From positions 257,747 through 321,746 of the forward strand of contig CAVOMG010000003.1 of the NCBI GenBank assembly GCA_963696985.1: a stretch of DNA of 64,000 bases, read 5' to 3'. Shown here piece after piece: positions 14,603 to 19,498 of the stretch. The position numbers and the translations under genes were made by a program. The stretch is from an uncultured Thermoplasmata archaeon. Lineage in GTDB: Archaea > Thermoplasmatota > Thermoplasmata > Lutacidiplasmatales > UBA184. The notes beneath the pieces are model-generated. The model did no database searches. It was not told where the DNA came from and saw only the letters and a program-made list of their open reading frames with translations. The first letter of the stretch is position 1. The number at the start of each line of letters is the position of its first letter.

Positions 14603-15661
14603 ATGCTCGCAATCGCCGGTATGGCCTCCGGGGGCTGGAAGGAGTTCGGGACCCGGCCCGTCGGGCGCGCGGTCCTCATGGCCGCCGCGATCCTTACGCT
14701 CGTCGGGAGCCTATTCTACCTCGGACCGTACGTCTCGATCGCGGTCCTGCTCCTCTTCGGAGCGGCCGTCCCGATCTACCTCGGCTGGAAGCGGCCGCGC
14801 CAACTCGCCATCGCGGCGTTCGCGGTGCTCCTGATCAGCGCCCCGCTCTTCTCGGTCATCTACGCGGACGAGCTCCGCGTGGCCACTCCGGCCGCCTCTT
14901 CGAACCCGGCCCTGCCTTTTGGGAACGGGAACCCGGCCCTACAGAACGCCAGGGTGACTCCGTTCGACGGGCCCCAGGGCGCCAATTACAGCTTCACGGT
15001 CGCGGTCCATCCCGAAGACCTCCCCCTAGGGATGCAGGCCCGTTTCCTCGAGCTCTTCATCTCCGATTGTCCCGGCGCGACCGGGAACCGATCGCCGAAC
15101 TGCCCCTCCGGGTACACCTACTTCGTCCTCAACCACACCTTCGCCCCGAACCTCACCGCTCCGACCACGGTCACCTTTGGCCACATCCTCCCCGGCGCCG
15201 ACGTCTGGTGGTGGAACCTCGCGCTCGCGATCTCCAATACCTCGGCCCCGAAGACCTACACCTGGGTCTGGCTCTACACGGGCGGGGGATACAATGGCGT
15301 CCAAGGACCCGTCTCCGGCGACTTCCTCTCCACGACCGAGCTCATCCTGCCCGCGGCATACGAGGTGATCCTGATCTACCCCGGCCTCGTCTTCTACATC
15401 GGGCTCCTGATCTACGTGCTACTGAAGAACCGAGAGGCCGCCCGGAAGGTGCCGACCGGTGGGACCCTGCCACCGCCTGCCCCCGGGTCACCGGCCGCGA
15501 CGGCCGTCTCGACCCCCTCGAGCGCGCCCGCCGAGCGGACCTGCCCCAACTGCGGCGCGGTCGTCTACCCGAACGAGACGAGCTGCTGGAAGTGCGGAAA
15601 GAGCCTCACGGAGCCGATGCCCGCACGCTCAAAGCCGCTCGAATCGTCGAAGGGCTCGTAA
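14603..15661 (+). CDS. membrane glycoprotein candidate with C-terminal cytoplasmic zinc ribbon
   Basis: N-terminal TM helices ('AVLMAAAILTLVGSLFYLGPYVSIAVLLLFGAAVPIYL', 'LAIAAFAVLLISAPLF'). Sequon-bearing middle region ('NYSF','NRSP','NHTF','NLTA','NTSA'). TM 'VILIYPGLVFYIGLLIYVLL'. Pro-rich linker, then 'CPNCGAVVYPNETSCWKCGKSL'. The start may be ATG 14621 if the transcript is leaderless. Confidence 0.7.
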   Translation: MLAIAGMASGGWKEFGTRPVGRAVLMAAAILTLVGSLFYLGPYVSIAVLLLFGAAVPIYLGWKRPRQLAIAAFAVLLISAPLFSVIYADELRVATPAASSNPALPFGNGNPALQNARVTPFDGPQGANYSFTVAVHPEDLPLGMQARFLELFISDCPGATGNRSPNCPSGYTYFVLNHTFAPNLTAPTTVTFGHILPGADVWWWNLALAISNTSAPKTYTWVWLYTGGGYNGVQGPVSGDFLSTTELILPAAYEVILIYPGLVFYIGLLIYVLLKNREAARKVPTGGTLPPPAPGSPAATAVSTPSSAPAERTCPNCGAVVYPNETSCWKCGKSLTEPMPARSKPLESSKGS

Positions 15662-15770
15662 ACCGACCGACGGGCGCTCGGATGGCGTCCCGGAACCGTC
15701 GCGAGCGTCGAATCTTGGCCAGTTATACTGCGGTGGGGCGCGCCCGGGACCAGAGCGCGGCGACCGGAAA

Positions 15771-15889
15771 TTTGTTCGACACGACGAGCAACGCTGTTCT
15801 GTGGCGCTTCTAGCAGTATCCTCACGGCCCAAGGACTTGGTTTAAGTAGAAGAAATTTGCATAGTTCGGACCCGTCGTGTTCGACAAAC
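15771..15889 (+). promoter_or_regulatory. promoter region of the RHH gene: TATA TTTAAGTA (15841-15848) bracketed by two GTTCGACA cores (15774-15781, 15879-15886) with inverted CGACG/CGTCG arms
   Basis: 'tttGTTCGACAcgacgag' and 'ccgtcgtGTTCGACAaaca'. The TATA lies about 30 nt upstream of GTG 15877. Confidence 0.5.
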
Positions 15890-16380
15890 AGCTCCGACGT
15901 TCGGCCGAGGACACCGAGTCCCGGCCTCCCAAGGTCGGGCCCGAGGACGAGCGGATCGCGCTCCGGTGCAACCGCCGAGAACTCCAGCTGGTGGACTCGT
16001 TCGTGGCGAACGGCGAGTTCCGTAACCGGTCGGAGCTTATTCGGCAAGCGCTCCACGCGTTCCTCCGGGACCGAGCCACGTCGGCCGTCGCCGCCCCCGC
16101 TCCGAGCGGGGCCGCCACCGGGCTCGTCGAGGTCCCGGTGCGGCTGCGCGCGGAGGAGATCGAGACCTACCGAGCCTACGGCGAACTCGTCTCGAACGGG
16201 CAGCAGATCGAGGATCTCCTCGCCCTGCTCGTTCGGCGCGGGGAGCTCGAGCTCAAGGTCGTGGAGACCGTCGCCCGGTCGCGCGCTTCGGTGCGCGACG
16301 CGGCCGAGGCGAAGCAGCGGATCCGGGAGCTGGGACGGAGCGCGGAGGAGCTGGAACGGCGGGGGGTCGTCGGCCGGTAG
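15877..16380 (+). CDS. ribbon-helix-helix (CopG/Arc/ParG-like) DNA-binding protein, apparently tandem RHH plus C-terminal coiled coil
   Basis: 'ERIALRCNRRELQLVDSFVANGEFRNRSELIRQALHAFL' fits a beta-strand, helix, helix pattern. There is a second similar unit, 'VEVPVRLRAEEIETYRAYGELVSNGQQIEDLLALLVRRG'. Then a charged heptad-like tail 'AEAKQRIRELGRSAEELERRG'. Confidence 0.7.
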   Translation: MFDKQLRRSAEDTESRPPKVGPEDERIALRCNRRELQLVDSFVANGEFRNRSELIRQALHAFLRDRATSAVAAPAPSGAATGLVEVPVRLRAEEIETYRAYGELVSNGQQIEDLLALLVRRGELELKVVETVARSRASVRDAAEAKQRIRELGRSAEELERRGVVGR

Positions 16381-16383
16381 ACG

Positions 16384-16408
16384 CCCGTCGTGCGCCGGAT
16401 TCGACAAA
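16384..16408 (+). promoter_or_regulatory. third copy of the CCCGTCGTG...TTCGACAAA element, between the RHH stop and the FtsZ-like start
   Basis: 'CCCGTCGTGcgccggaTTCGACAAAag' compared with 'CCCGTCGTGTTCGACAAAca' at 15871-15890. It is followed by the SD-like AGAGGGGTG. Confidence 0.45.
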
Positions 16409-16417
16409 AGAGGGGTG

Positions 16418-17328
16418 GTGCAAGTGTTCGAGGGGGAGGGAACTAGAGGCGAGCGAAGCGAGGATTTCGGCACCGGGGAGTCGTACGGGTCGGAGGCGTT
16501 CGAGACGCCGCGGCTCGGCCACGACATCCGATTCGTCCTGGCCGCCGTCGGCGGTGGGGGTATCCGGGTCGCCCGCGCGGTCGCCCGACGCCACCTGCCC
16601 TATCTCGAGACCGTCGCGATCAACTGCGACCCGAGGGTCCAGGAACTGGAGGAGTTCGACCGGCGGATCTGCCTGGGACCGGAGAGCGGGGCGACCCCGT
16701 CGACAGGGGGTTCCCCCCTGGTCGGCAGTGAGCTCGCGCGCTCGGCCGAGCCCGTCCTCCACCGGCTCTTCGAAGGGGCCACCTTCGTCACGATCATCGC
16801 TAGCCTCGGCGGGGGAACCGGCACCGGGGCCCTCCCCTACGTCCTCGAGTCCGCCTCGAGGAGCGCCTCCGCCCTCAAGGTCTTCGTGATCAAGCCGTTC
16901 GAGTGCGAGGGGGAGCGCCGCGGGCTGGCCGAGCGGACGCTCGCGCGCCTCCACTTCCTCGACGCCTTCGTCGAAAAGCAGCAGCTCGGAATGGCCACCC
17001 TGCAGATCCTCGACAACGAAGTGCTCGCCCGGACCGAGCGGCAGCTCCCGATCGGTCGGATCGACCGGTACTGGGGCGAGGTCGTCGCCCACCTGGTCGA
17101 GCGCGAGATCATCCGACCCGCCGAGGCCGTCCTCAACGCGGAACGGCTGCGCACCCTCACCCAGAGCACCCCCGTGATCCGTCCGGCCGGGCCGAGCTCG
17201 AGCCGATCGAGCGCGACCCCCTGCTCCCCGTCGGCCCTCACCTCGCTCCCGCCGTCGCCCGGTCCTCGGCCGAGGCGGTCGAGCTCACGATCGAGTCGTT
17301 CCCTTCGGACTCCCCGCGGGTCCCCTAG
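16418..17328 (+). CDS. FtsZ/tubulin-superfamily GTPase-domain protein lacking the T7 loop and C-terminal subdomain; frame probably broken near the 3' end
   Basis: Inside ORF 15857..17362: 'FVLAAVGGGGIRVARAV' (T1), 'AINCD' (compare FtsZ AINTD), tubulin signature 'GGGTGTG' (16808-16828), 'VIKPFECEGERR' (compare PFxFEGxxR), 'ILDNEVL' (compare PNDxLL). After about 17170-17195 the listed frame becomes Ser/Arg/Pro junk with poor GC3. The other frame (ORF 16903..17328) reads 'RAELEPIERDPLLPVGPHLAPAVARSSAEAVELTIESFPSDSPRVP*' with high GC3. GTG starts at 16415/16418/16424 follow the SD-like element. Confidence 0.7.
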
Positions 17329-17385
17329 GCCGACCCACGGACCCCGTCGAACCAAACGTTAAGTGGGGGGGGGCGTCCGCCCGGC

Positions 17386-17556
17386 ATGGACGGACGGGCC
17401 GTCACCGCCTCCCTCACGATCCTCCTGCCGGCGATCCTGGTCGCCGTAACGGTGTGGAAGTTCGCGTCGAACCCGCTCGTGATCCTGATCCTCTTCTCGA
17501 CGATGATCGCCGGGGCGCTCTACCTCTTGACCTACCGGGAATCGTTCGGGGCGTAG
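17386..17556 (+). CDS. 56-aa two-TM micro-protein (below the ORF-track size cut-off)
   Basis: ATG 17386 to TAG 17554-17556: 'MDGRAVTASLTILLPAILVAVTVWKFASNPLVILILFSTMIAGALYLLTYRESFGA'. High GC3, two hydrophobic helices. Confidence 0.55.
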   Translation: MDGRAVTASLTILLPAILVAVTVWKFASNPLVILILFSTMIAGALYLLTYRESFGA

Positions 17557-17565
17557 GCCCCCGGG

Positions 17566-18345
17566 CTATCCGTAGATCGTCCGTTCCACCGGGGCGGACC
17601 CCTCGGGGCCCTCGGGTCCGCGCCTCGTCCGCCCTTTGAGGGCGGCCCGCAGAGCCCGCTCGATCATCTCGGCCTGGGTCCGCAGCGGTCCCGTGTCGAT
17701 CTTCAGGTCCGGCAGGAACCGGTCGAGCGTCTCGATGAGCGCCGCTCCGGCGCGGTTGTCCGGGAGTCCCTCCTCCGAGGGCCTCGCGCCCACCAGCAGG
17801 ACCGCGACCGGGATCGACCTTCGGATCCCCTCGACGAGGAGCGCGCCCGAGACGCCGCCGATCACCCCGTCCTCGAGGATGCGGGCCCTGGCGGTGCGGA
17901 GTTGGCCGAGCAGGGCTTCGTCCCGCCGCGCGAGCGCGGCCCAGACGAACTCCTCGGCCGGGGCGTCCTCGTCGCTCCCGTCTCCCGGGTGGGGGAACAC
18001 GCCCTCGAGGCCGATGACGATCCGCGCGCGGCGCTCCTCGGCGCCCTCGAGGATCATCCGGGCGATCTCCGGGCCGGATGAGAGAGAGATCGGGAGCTCC
18101 GAGAGGACGACGGCGAGGTCCTTGCGGCCGTGGATCCGCACCGCCGGTTGGACCTGGCCCCCCTGCACGATCGCGATCGCCGAACCGTCCGGGCTGTCGA
18201 CGAGCCCGATCCTCGGCAGGTCGAGGGTCTGGACGATGTAGTGGGCGGCCACCGTCGCGGCGAGGCCGGCGCTCGGGAAGCTCGACAGGACGATCGCCCC
18301 CGGCTGGAGCACTCCAGCTCCCTCGTCGACCCACTTCGCCGGCAC
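17566..18345 (-). CDS. PAC2-family (proteasome assembly chaperone-like) protein
   Basis: 'AIVLSSFPSAGLAATVAAHYIVQTLDLPRIGLVDSP...VRIHGRKDLAVVLSELP...GVSGALLVEG' resembles archaeal PAC2/DUF75-type proteins. GTG 18345. The upstream 73 aa of ORF 17566..18564 look non-coding. Confidence 0.55.
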   Translation of the reverse strand: MPAKWVDEGAGVLQPGAIVLSSFPSAGLAATVAAHYIVQTLDLPRIGLVDSPDGSAIAIVQGGQVQPAVRIHGRKDLAVVLSELPISLSSGPEIARMILEGAEERRARIVIGLEGVFPHPGDGSDEDAPAEEFVWAALARRDEALLGQLRTARARILEDGVIGGVSGALLVEGIRRSIPVAVLLVGARPSEEGLPDNRAGAALIETLDRFLPDLKIDTGPLRTQAEMIERALRAALKGRTRRGPEGPEGSAPVERTIYG

Positions 18346-18475
18346 GGTTCGCCTCCAGGGTGGTCTAACGAACGGAGTACATATCGGCGCTGCGGAGGGG
18401 CCCGGGTCTGGACACGGCCCGACGGTGGGGGCGGCCCGACAACCGACAAGTACTGCGCCTCGCTCGTCCCTGCCC

Positions 18476-19498
18476 GTGGGGCTCCCGTTCGGCGAGATCG
18501 TCCACTCCCAGGAGGTCCCTTGGACGACCCTCGCCGGGCGGCTCCTGGCCGTCGACGGCAACAACGCGGTCTACCAGTTCCTTGCGACCATCCGGCAGCG
18601 CGACGGCCAGCCGTTCTCCGACCCGGAAGGGCACGTCACGAGCCACCTGATCGGGGTCCTGTACCGCACGACGTCGCTCCTGGCCCAAGGCGTCCGACCG
18701 GTCTGGATCTTCGACGGCCAACCCCCGGAGCTCAAGGCCGGTACCTTGAGCGCCCGGTTCCGCGCGAAGGAGCGCGCGGAATCGGAGTGGAAGGAGGCGG
18801 TCGCCCGCGGGGATTGGGAGACGGCCCGCCGGAAAGCGTCGGCCACGTCCCGGTTCACCCGTCCGATGGCCGCCGAGGCGATCGAGCTCCTGCAGGCCCT
18901 TGGGGTCCCCACGGTACAGGCGCCGTCGGAGGGGGAGGCCCAGGCCGCCCGGATGGCCGCCGACGGCCGGGTGTGGGCCGCCGGCTCGGAGGATTACGAT
19001 AGCCTGCTCTTCGGCGCGCCCCGATTGGTGCGAGGACTGGCGGCCCGGGCCCGCTCGGGGGACCAACCGGCCGCGCAACTCGTCGTTCGGGAAAAGCTCC
19101 TCGGGGAGCTCGGAATCTCCGGGGAGGAGCTCATCCTCCTCGGCCTGATCGTCGGAACCGACTTCAACGACGGAGCGAAGGGGTTCGGGCCGAAGAAGGG
19201 CTTGAAGCTCGTCCAGCGCCACCTCGGCTGGGACGAGACGCTACGCGCCGCGAACCTCGTGCCGGAAGAGATCGCCCCGGCCGCCGAGATCTTTCGAACC
19301 CCCCAGGTCGCGGAGGTCGGGGATCTCACGTTCCGGCCGATCAATTCGGAGGCCGTGGAGCGGATCCTCGTCGAAGGCCGGGGATTCTCCGCCGATCGGG
19401 TCCGTTCGGCGGTCGACCGGGCGCGGCGGGCGCCGCCGGTCGCGGCGCCGCCGGATGGGCGGCACCAGAGCCAGCTCGATCGCTTCGGAGGACCGTGA
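18476..19498 (+). CDS. fen: flap endonuclease 1
   Basis: 'LAVDGNNAVYQFL', 'HLIGVLYRTTSLL..GVRPVWIFDGQPPELK', 'APSEGEAQAARMA', 'SEDYDSLLFGAP', 'LIVGTDFN'. GTG 18476 gives the usual FEN1 N-terminus (VGLPFGEIV). Confidence 0.92.
   Translation: MGLPFGEIVHSQEVPWTTLAGRLLAVDGNNAVYQFLATIRQRDGQPFSDPEGHVTSHLIGVLYRTTSLLAQGVRPVWIFDGQPPELKAGTLSARFRAKERAESEWKEAVARGDWETARRKASATSRFTRPMAAEAIELLQALGVPTVQAPSEGEAQAARMAADGRVWAAGSEDYDSLLFGAPRLVRGLAARARSGDQPAAQLVVREKLLGELGISGEELILLGLIVGTDFNDGAKGFGPKKGLKLVQRHLGWDETLRAANLVPEEIAPAAEIFRTPQVAEVGDLTFRPINSEAVERILVEGRGFSADRVRSAVDRARRAPPVAAPPDGRHQSQLDRFGGP

Follow-up and report, generated by a model that had tools for sequence, protein, structure and literature searches.

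The locus at positions 15877-17556 of a 64-kb stretch of DNA from an uncultured Thermoplasmata archaeon of soil (contig CAVOMG010000003.1; the whole stretch is called the window below) raises the question of what an FtsZ-like protein that stops halfway through the FtsZ fold is doing between a gene for a ribbon-helix-helix (RHH) protein and a gene for a very small membrane protein. The cassette spans three genes, all on the same strand, which code for the RHH protein, the half-length FtsZ homolog (FtsZh), and a two-transmembrane (2-TM) micro-protein (TM55). The reading favored here, with a probability of roughly 60%, is that the cassette represents the cdrS-ftsZ2-type division operon of this high-GC Thermoplasmata lineage, in which the RHH protein would act as an autoregulator and FtsZh as a tethered, GTP-binding capper or regulator. 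The features of the three genes are as follows.

15877-16380, + strand: CdrS-like tandem-RHH protein, 167 amino acids (aa), with a long C-terminal helix and a GTG start (Pfam, NCBIfam, AlphaFold2 [AF2])
16412-16418, + strand: Shine-Dalgarno-like GGGGTGG ahead of the FtsZh start, recurring in most loci
16424-17328, + strand: FtsZh, an FtsZ homolog without the T7 loop and C-terminal subdomain, 301 aa after a 1-nt correction (Pfam, PDB, AF2, Foldseek, alignments)
16511-17167, + strand: GTPase N-domain of FtsZh (S1-S6, loops T1-T6) and helix H7 (AF2 predicted local distance difference test [pLDDT] >95 across the core; Foldseek)
17186-17195, + strand: frameshift site, one base missing in the GGCCGGGCC run (G+C content at third codon positions [GC3]; homologs)
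17278-17295, + strand: conserved C-terminal peptide VELTIE of FtsZh, family consensus AELTFEV (MAFFT family alignment)
17386-17556, + strand: TM55, a 2-TM hairpin micro-protein of 56 aa, conserved directly 3' of FtsZh

The only Pfam match of FtsZh is to Tubulin (PF00091; E = 4.7e-15, residues 41-166), and its matches to FtsZ in a PDB sequence search, which reach E = 4e-17, are confined to residues 39-176. The TIGR00065 ftsZ model scores 80.8 bits over N-domain profile positions 20-161, below its curated equivalog cutoff of 295.2 bits. An AF2 model of an intact, 93%-identical homolog (pLDDT 86 overall and >95 for residues 33-251) contains strands S1-S6 with their helices and a long H7, with nothing folded after H7 and the remainder disordered; Foldseek aligns ~195 columns of the homolog model to many FtsZ structures (root mean square deviation [rmsd] ~2.5 Å), covering the N-domain and H7 only. 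Profile and Foldseek searches alike place the GTPase as an FtsZ N-domain plus H7, not as a full-length FtsZ truncated by assembly error. In alignment with full-length archaeal FtsZs, FtsZh retains T1, the NCD of T2, T3, the GGGTGTG of T4, the PFxxEG of T5, and the LDN of T6, and within the family GG (T1), NCD (T2), GGxGxG (T4), PFxxE (T5), and LDN (T6) are invariant. FtsZh thus has all of the FtsZ/tubulin GTP-binding motifs quoted in an earlier, sequence-only reading of this DNA, and it probably binds GTP.

That reading had also placed the end of the similarity at the T7 position and found the C-terminal subdomain in no frame, and the alignment with archaeal FtsZs, the AF2 model, and Foldseek bear out the first point, as the searches for FtsZ_C do the second. 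The T7 segment reads PAEAVLNAERL in the window and PAEAVLDAERM in the family member P0002, versus PSLINLDFADV (NxDFAD) in canonical FtsZ; its catalytic positions are unconserved across the family, and in the AF2 model the segment simply continues H7. The alignment then has a gap of ~110 residues relative to canonical archaeal FtsZ, corresponding to the C-terminal subdomain. FtsZ_C (PF12327) has no match in the window FtsZh, and the 120 listed homologs carry PF00091 only; control full-length FtsZs matched both Tubulin and FtsZ_C. No reading frame after H7 in the window encodes an FtsZ_C domain, and none of 21 family representatives is long enough to contain one.

The part of FtsZh that follows H7 consists of a variable Pro-rich linker and a nearly invariant (A/V)ELT(F/I)E(V/I) peptide, which MAFFT places on the C-terminal ELGIEV or DLGIDY of canonical archaeal FtsZs; this canonical tail is the 'GID' motif shown to bind SepF by Pende et al. 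(PMC8178401). On these alignments and models, FtsZh is best described as an FtsZ minus T7 and the C-terminal subdomain, with linker and tail kept. Like archaeal FtsZ1 and FtsZ2, it has the N-terminal GTPase fold (T1-T6), H7, a disordered linker, and a short C-terminal peptide at the 'GID' position; unlike them, it lacks T7 and FtsZ_C, contains a family-specific insert of 7 residues after H5, and ends in ELTFEV rather than (E/D)LGI(D/E). Its N terminus (16424-16510 in the window), which is outside the folded domain, carries a conserved (M/T)YE(A/G)E. The large protein database contains at least 498 homologs, nearly all of the 120 listed being 291 to 324 aa long, and where named these are from Thermoplasmata. 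A profile search of 1.8 billion representatives returned the 21 family representatives at E values up to 1e-30, followed by a gap to ~120-80 bits.

The FtsZh open reading frame (ORF) as called is 312 aa long and extends to 17362, and its 3' end there is, judging from composition and homologs, the artifact of a 1-nt deletion. GC3 moves to another frame at ~17150-17240, and all FtsZh homologs, including the 93%-identical one, run on in that other frame to the stop at 17328, reading ...RPxxPELEPIERD... in the affected region. Adding one base after 17193, within the GGCCGGGCC run, yields a 301-aa protein with its stop at 17328, which is the family length. The early suspicion about 17150-17330 was justified. 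The cause is likely a homopolymer-type sequencing error in the GC-rich run, and the damage touches the linker and tail only. A 312-aa database copy identical to the window (P0001) has the same frameshift. Another database copy, P0279, is frameshifted with its first half out of frame, and indel errors seem to be recurrent in assemblies of this GC-rich gene.

The gene triplet is conserved in related genomes. It is present in ~60 Thermoplasmata metagenome-assembled genomes (MAGs) in a scan of one genome per species, and the order RHH-FtsZh-TM55 is kept in family loci wherever the contig reaches far enough; beyond the cassette family, the same scan falls abruptly to ordinary FtsZs at ~30% identity. 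Because these MAGs include UBA184 (Lutacidiplasmatales), the host lineage is probably the order Lutacidiplasmatales/TMEG of high-GC Thermoplasmata; the window is 69.5% G+C, and members of Lutacidiplasmatales/TMEG have ~69% G+C and genomes of ~2.1 Mb (PMC9287336). Across family loci, amino acid identities are 49 to 85% for the RHH protein, 41 to 77% (mostly 49 to 77%) for FtsZh, and 42 to 76% for TM55, levels similar to those of the neighboring housekeeping proteins FEN1 (61 to 82%) and PAC2 (47 to 68%). The cassette is a single locus with housekeeping genes on both flanks, in a contig of 977 kb: PAC2 and FEN1 usually lie downstream of TM55, the genes upstream of the cassette differ between loci, and the surrounding genes (apgM, Trm5, PPDK, FTCD, primase, nuo genes, and RIO kinase) are chromosomal. 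There are no matches to the cassette among 72,556 plasmids or among 50,697 phage genomes. The cassette is chromosomal and vertically inherited across ~60 species-level MAGs.

The RHH protein connects the cassette to a known operon. Residues 22-68 give weak Pfam matches to RHH_1, RHH_8, and DUF7120, and the top match among 18,950 NCBIfam models is 'transcriptional regulator CdrS' (NF058555; E = 5e-7, with 29.6 bits, below the haloarchaeal equivalog cutoff of 100). The AF2 model (pLDDT 78) has two helix-helix units, at residues 33-44/51-70 and 92-104/111-161, the final helix of the second being prolonged into a long C-terminal helix, and the best Foldseek matches are to ParD RHH domains, although these are weak (probability 0.8, rmsd ~2 Å over 42-47 residues). 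Two RHH-like units had been proposed from the sequence, and the AF2 model agrees, although unit 2 is undetectable from the window sequence alone: by itself it has no Pfam RHH match, and an hhalign comparison of unit 1 with unit 2 yields no significant internal duplication. The aligned unit 2 of one relative matches Pfam RHH_1 above threshold (23.1 bits, E = 6.6e-5). The protein has 278 homologs, mostly of 162 to 181 aa. Its termini outside the folded domains are conserved, with MFD(K/N) at the N terminus (15877-15890) and LER(K/R)GVVGR strictly at the C terminus (16354-16380); these and the terminal motifs of FtsZh could be interaction peptides.

Haloarchaea transcribe the RHH gene cdrS together with ftsZ2, a pairing that is conserved throughout the Euryarchaeota, and their CdrS and CdrL are transcription factors that control division (PMC7439475, PMC8406309); Pende et al. 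likewise describe 'ftsZ2 frequently with parD' (PMC8178401). A homologous RHH gene lies directly upstream of each of the five full-length Thermoplasmatota FtsZ genes examined (P0463, P0479, P0429, P0267, and P0428), among them the full-length archaeal FtsZs that match the FtsZh profile best. These RHH genes code for proteins of 104 to 112 aa, with RHH_1 in all, RHH_8 in three, and DUF7120 in two, and the flanking genes of the five loci are mutually unrelated. The same holds for short FtsZs, with a homologous RHH gene directly upstream in five of five groups examined; the small gene directly upstream is seen for P0287, P0422, P0313, and a divergent FtsZh lineage, P0392. The RHH proteins upstream of short and full-length Thermoplasmatota ftsZ genes align as one family with two successive RHH-like units, and all 11 of those aligned (the window protein and 10 relatives) match the CdrS model, with a best E value of 8e-21. 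Because of this common alignment and these matches, short and full-length FtsZs are seen to share one operon position behind one regulator family. Because homologous RHH genes precede all Thermoplasmatota FtsZs examined, the cassette is, on gene order and homology, a derivative of the known cdrS-ftsZ2 operon and not a TubZRC-like partition module. The sequence-only reading knew of no such combination in archaea, but an RHH gene immediately ahead of ftsZ is what published work describes for cdrS-ftsZ2 (PMC7439475, PMC8406309, PMC8178401).

The cassette resembles the cdrS-ftsZ2 operon in having a gene for a CopG/ParD-like RHH transcription factor directly upstream of an ftsZ paralog, with apparent co-transcription, in the match of the RHH protein to the CdrS model, and in the regulator sites (here candidate boxes) upstream of the promoter. 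It differs in that the RHH protein is a tandem of 167 aa with a long C-terminal helix, compared to ~61 aa for haloarchaeal CdrS, that its FtsZ lacks T7 and the C-terminal subdomain, and that a 2-TM micro-protein gene follows. FtsZh starts at a GTG at 16424, 43 nt past the RHH stop and 5 nt past GGGGTGG, and a similar purine-rich element is located ~5-10 nt ahead of the FtsZh start in most loci. The Shine-Dalgarno-like element and the 43-nt gap together suggest that the two genes are co-transcribed; the element had been noted before, together with a gap given as 38 nt, which is in error.

The region upstream of the RHH gene has four conserved elements.

15722-15728, + strand: TATA-like GTTATAC, ~150 nt upstream of the RHH start, conserved in >90% of 57 aligned upstream regions
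15773-15781, + strand: distal TGTTCGACA box (-103 box), candidate operator of the RHH protein, conserved in relatives
15841-15848, + strand: TATA box TTTAAGTA of the operon promoter, conserved with fixed spacing
15878-15886, + strand: proximal TGTTCGACA box, overlapping the start codon (GTG at 15877), conserved as GTGTTCGAC

The TATA box TTTAAGTA is exactly 28 nt ahead of the GTG in 59 of 61 promoter-pattern sequences, and this fixed spacing implies that the operon mRNA is leaderless or nearly so. The 64 kb contain just two copies of TGTTCGACA, starting at 15773 and 15878, compared to 0.16 expected by chance. All 61 promoter-pattern sequences contain GTGTTCGAC, which is itself part of the pattern used to select them, and 52 of 55 relatives carry the TTCGAC of the distal box between -100 and -104. 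An additional copy at ~-124, 21 nt upstream of the distal box, is found in 36 of the 55 relatives and is absent from the window. In relatives, GTTATAC is ~29 nt before this extra GTGTTCGAC box and so repeats the TATA-spacer-box layout of the main promoter; the two could form a second promoter or reflect an upstream transcript. Related boxes (~GTYNGACAAA) precede the RHH gene in most other lineages examined, with repeated examples including GTCGGACAAAA, GTCAGACAAAA, GGACAAAA, and TATGACA in five copies. This is the pattern expected of an operator co-evolving with its autoregulator, and binding by the RHH protein is predicted; autoregulation is suggested by the conserved TGTTCGACA boxes together with the invariant 28-nt spacing from TATA to start. 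The Haloferax volcanii CdrS motif is located 41-110 nt upstream of transcription start sites (PMC8406309), and the -103 box falls in the same range. An Rfam scan of the upstream region and operon found no known noncoding RNA at E values up to 1.

TM55, which had been noticed as a 56-aa two-TM ORF at 17386, is a genuine and conserved gene with 58 distinct homologs (consensus MDGR..LPA..T..F.SNP..M..G..YL.Y.E.F). It is detected immediately 3' of FtsZh in 58 of 64 family loci, most of the others being cut short, and it is also found in the divergent L088 lineage. In L051, L052, and L058, PAC2 and FEN1 are displaced by insertions and TM55 still adjoins FtsZh.

FtsZh is not the only short FtsZ. Further Tubulin-only groups of 248 to 303 aa surfaced in the representative search, one cluster being named Methanomassiliicoccales and others coming from archaeal metagenome lineages; they comprise P0287, P0356/P0422, P0313/P0273, P0274/P0390, P0266, P0272, and P0277, with loci L085, L101, and L102. 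They resemble FtsZh in consisting of the N-domain and H7 only and in having the RHH family upstream in the three looked up, and differ in sharing less than 35% identity with it, in their C-terminal tails, and in having no TM55 called downstream in L085 and L101. In a rough neighbor-joining tree, which is without support values, the short FtsZs cluster together on a long branch of their own. P0262, P0264, and P0265 (731 to 840 aa) are each a tandem of two complete FtsZ units, with Tubulin and FtsZ_C both matched twice, and are among the best non-family matches to the FtsZh profile.

FtsZl1 and FtsZl2 were considered as a home for FtsZh and rejected, as FtsZh is 301 aa long, has nothing folded after H7, and has other neighbors. 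FtsZl1 is ~1000 aa long with a coiled coil and an alpha-helical C-domain, is found in vWA/OmpA operons, and has an unrecognizable T6-H7 and canonical C-domain, filament formation by a novel mechanism having been proposed; FtsZl2 has a ~300-aa alpha/beta C-region and retains T7 (PMC2875224). These are likewise divergent members of the FtsZ superfamily, and FtsZl1 shares with FtsZh the absence of a recognizable canonical C-domain, although FtsZh is compact (~300 aa) and clearly FtsZ-like up to H7. A literature search turned up no earlier account of a conserved archaeal FtsZ family that has the tail but neither T7 nor the C-terminal subdomain, and none of TM55, of the box architecture, or of a CdrS with tandem RHH units. 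The adjacency of RHH and FtsZ genes is known already, and the conserved half-FtsZ variant is apparently undescribed.

In the proposed mechanism, the RHH protein would be a transcription factor acting at the TGTTCGACA boxes (at the start codon, at -103, and in relatives at -124) and autoregulating the operon in the manner of haloarchaeal CdrS and CdrL. FtsZh would bind GTP and offer a normal 'top' (nucleotide) face without a 'bottom' face. By the structural principles of FtsZ and tubulin, longitudinal contact and GTPase activation need both T7 and the C-terminal subdomain, so that FtsZh, which has neither, should be unable to activate hydrolysis in a neighbor or to supply the bottom contact, and would therefore not form self-activating homopolymers. 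A canonical FtsZ subunit could dock onto FtsZh by its T7 loop, which would leave FtsZh at one end of the filament, where it might cap, terminate, or nucleate growth; the C-terminal peptide of FtsZh would serve as the tether, with SepF or possibly the neighboring TM55 as the anchor. MciZ and SulA (of unrelated folds, both binding the bottom face of FtsZ) and plant ARC3 (with an FtsZ-derived domain) sit on one longitudinal face of FtsZ and restrict polymerization; the analogy is functional only, and FtsZh would be a subunit mimic offering the top face only. A T7-less GTP binder serving as a capping or regulatory FtsZ paralog had been put forward as an alternative in the sequence-only reading; it is viable as the mechanism favored here, the role of tethered capper or regulator of canonical FtsZ being inferred from the domain content.

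Several points weigh against this reading. Without a canonical, T7-bearing FtsZ or a SepF as partner in the same lineage, the capping model fails. There is no second FtsZ within the 64-kb window, and no SepF or FtsZ among its 10 small ORFs; neither FtsZ, SepF, nor ESCRT is mentioned in the paper that describes Lutacidiplasmatales, supplements included (PMC9287336), and the high-GC full-length FtsZ candidates P0429 and P0428 belong to other assemblies. The table of Pende et al. lists most Thermoplasmata with one to six FtsZs and SepF, and "Candidatus Methanomethylophilus alvus" and Ferroplasma acidarmanus with neither (PMC8178401). The C-terminal peptide of FtsZh departs from the invariant GID motif (G to T and I to F). 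Conservation of the proximal box is partly coding, as it also codes for the conserved N terminus MFD(K/N). Descent of FtsZh from FtsZ2 would rest on gene order, not phylogeny: the rough tree, which included no labeled FtsZ2 reference, separates the short FtsZs from those full-length FtsZs that follow an RHH gene, and a comparison of profile scores for FtsZ1 or FtsZ2 ancestry gave about equal values (80-90 bits) for all canonical FtsZs. TM55 is linked to FtsZh by adjacency only and seems to have its own TATA-like GTTAAGT (17358-17364), ~22-27 nt before its ATG, with similar AT-rich elements in both relatives inspected (L026 and L038); although the two genes are strictly adjacent, TM55 may be transcribed on its own, as a leaderless mRNA. 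The roles in DNA binding, GTP binding, and polymerization are all predicted ones.

A bolder and tentative extension, which we consider rather doubtful, is that the short FtsZs form one ancient, Thermoplasmatota-wide paralog family that has taken over the cdrS-linked FtsZ2 slot. They would be T7-less, permanently GTP-loaded subunit mimics, membrane-tethered via the tail or the 2-TM micro-protein, and would act either as polarity-specific caps or nucleators of FtsZ1 filaments or as the sole tubulin-superfamily division protein in lineages reported as FtsZ-less. In the latter case, a noncanonical division mechanism would be implied for such lineages.

FtsZh may instead be a self-sufficient cytoskeletal or division protein with TM55 as its anchor; H7 or the C-terminal peptide, for example, would stand in for the lost subdomain in a new polymerization interface, and the protein might take the place of canonical FtsZ2, or of every FtsZ, in these wall-less archaea. 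The strong constraint on the whole N-domain, the conserved C-terminal peptide, and the occupation of the operon slot of full-length FtsZ by short FtsZs in several lineages are in keeping with this, as are the Thermoplasmata listed without detected FtsZ or SepF (PMC8178401) and the novel filament mechanism proposed for FtsZl1, which also lacks recognizable T6-H7 and C-domain elements (PMC2875224). However, this explanation is unlikely given the dependence of longitudinal contact and GTPase activation on T7 and the C-terminal subdomain, which is established FtsZ/tubulin structural biology, and given that the AF2 monomer shows nothing folded after H7 and that loss of canonical FtsZ from these genomes is not established. 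About equally improbable is that FtsZh is a nonpolymerizing GTP switch or adaptor that recruits or sequesters SepF, TM55, or a membrane zinc-ribbon neighbor in a nucleotide-dependent manner and leaves FtsZ filaments untouched. It would account for the conservation of the nucleotide-binding loops with loss of the catalytic T7 residues, for the conserved terminal motifs (N-terminal YE(A/G)E and C-terminal ELTFEV), and for the conserved membrane-protein neighbors; but the top-face loops T3 and T5, which contact the next subunit in FtsZ, are still conserved, for which a subunit-like partner is the easiest explanation, and we know of no precedent for such a switch within the FtsZ family.

The type III-like segregation or cytomotive cassette of the sequence-only reading is unsupported. 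In that scheme, the RHH protein would be a centromere-binding adaptor, FtsZh a cytomotive NTPase, and TM55 a membrane tether, as in a TubZRC-like or other partition system, and it draws on the tubulin-superfamily GTPase beside a gene for a small DNA-binding protein, on the repeated boxes upstream of it, and on the occurrence of RHH adaptors in type Ib and type II partition systems. TubR has a winged helix-turn-helix fold and not the RHH fold; TubZ is a filament-forming protein with both subdomains, whereas FtsZh lacks the domain needed for filaments; and TubZRC systems are plasmid or phage borne with an iteron array as tubC, whereas the cassette lies in a chromosomal housekeeping context, is vertically inherited, and is without plasmid or phage matches. 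The boxes number just two or three, each of 9 nt (at +1, -103, and, in relatives, -124), and are positioned like operator or activator sites. A relationship to TubZ or PhuZ was rejected, the PDB matches being marginal (E = 0.02 for TubZ/RepX and 0.4 to 0.6 for PhuZ, versus 4e-17 for FtsZ). With a CdrS-like RHH protein whose family also precedes ordinary full-length ftsZ genes, partition is largely refuted and very improbable. Least credible of all is that the FtsZh gene is an assembly or annotation artifact or a decaying pseudogene of full-length ftsZ, for although the window copy has its 1-nt frameshift and P0279 is frameshifted too, ~60 species and, in metagenomes, hundreds of copies share the ~300-aa architecture, in which the residues that bind GTP are invariant, no frame past H7 encodes FtsZ_C, and the frameshift hits only linker and tail in a GC-rich run typical of sequencing error.

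Two neighbors of the cassette merit description. Upstream, 14603-15661 (+ strand) codes for a 352-aa protein that combines several TM helices with a Pro-rich linker and, at its C terminus, a zinc ribbon (weak Pfam Zn_Ribbon_1/DZR matches); its gene adjoins the operon here and in close relatives and is within ~3 kb in many others. The anchor, disordered linker, and zinc finger are reminiscent of CdpC, an FtsZ1 membrane anchor with remote homologs in Thermoplasmatota (2026 preprint), and the protein also calls to mind the DZR tail of CdrL. Downstream, a PAC2-family ORF with a TTG start (17566-18564, - strand, 332 aa) overlaps the start of FEN1 (18425-19498, + strand) by 140 nt; PAC2 homologs are 274 to 297 aa long, so that translation of PAC2 probably begins further downstream than listed.

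Assembly of FtsZ into filaments relies on contact between the top face of a subunit, where GTP is bound, and the T7 loop and C-terminal subdomain of its neighbor. A conserved, natural top-half FtsZ that has kept the linker and a putative anchoring tail offers a ready means of probing polarity, capping, and treadmilling in these filaments, and it is relevant to the part that FtsZ2, the second archaeal FtsZ, plays in constriction. The conserved promoter and boxes offer a testable candidate operator for a CdrS-type cell-cycle regulator outside the haloarchaea. Surveys that demand both FtsZ domains or near-full coverage could miss the short FtsZs, which may affect claims that some Thermoplasmata are FtsZ-less.

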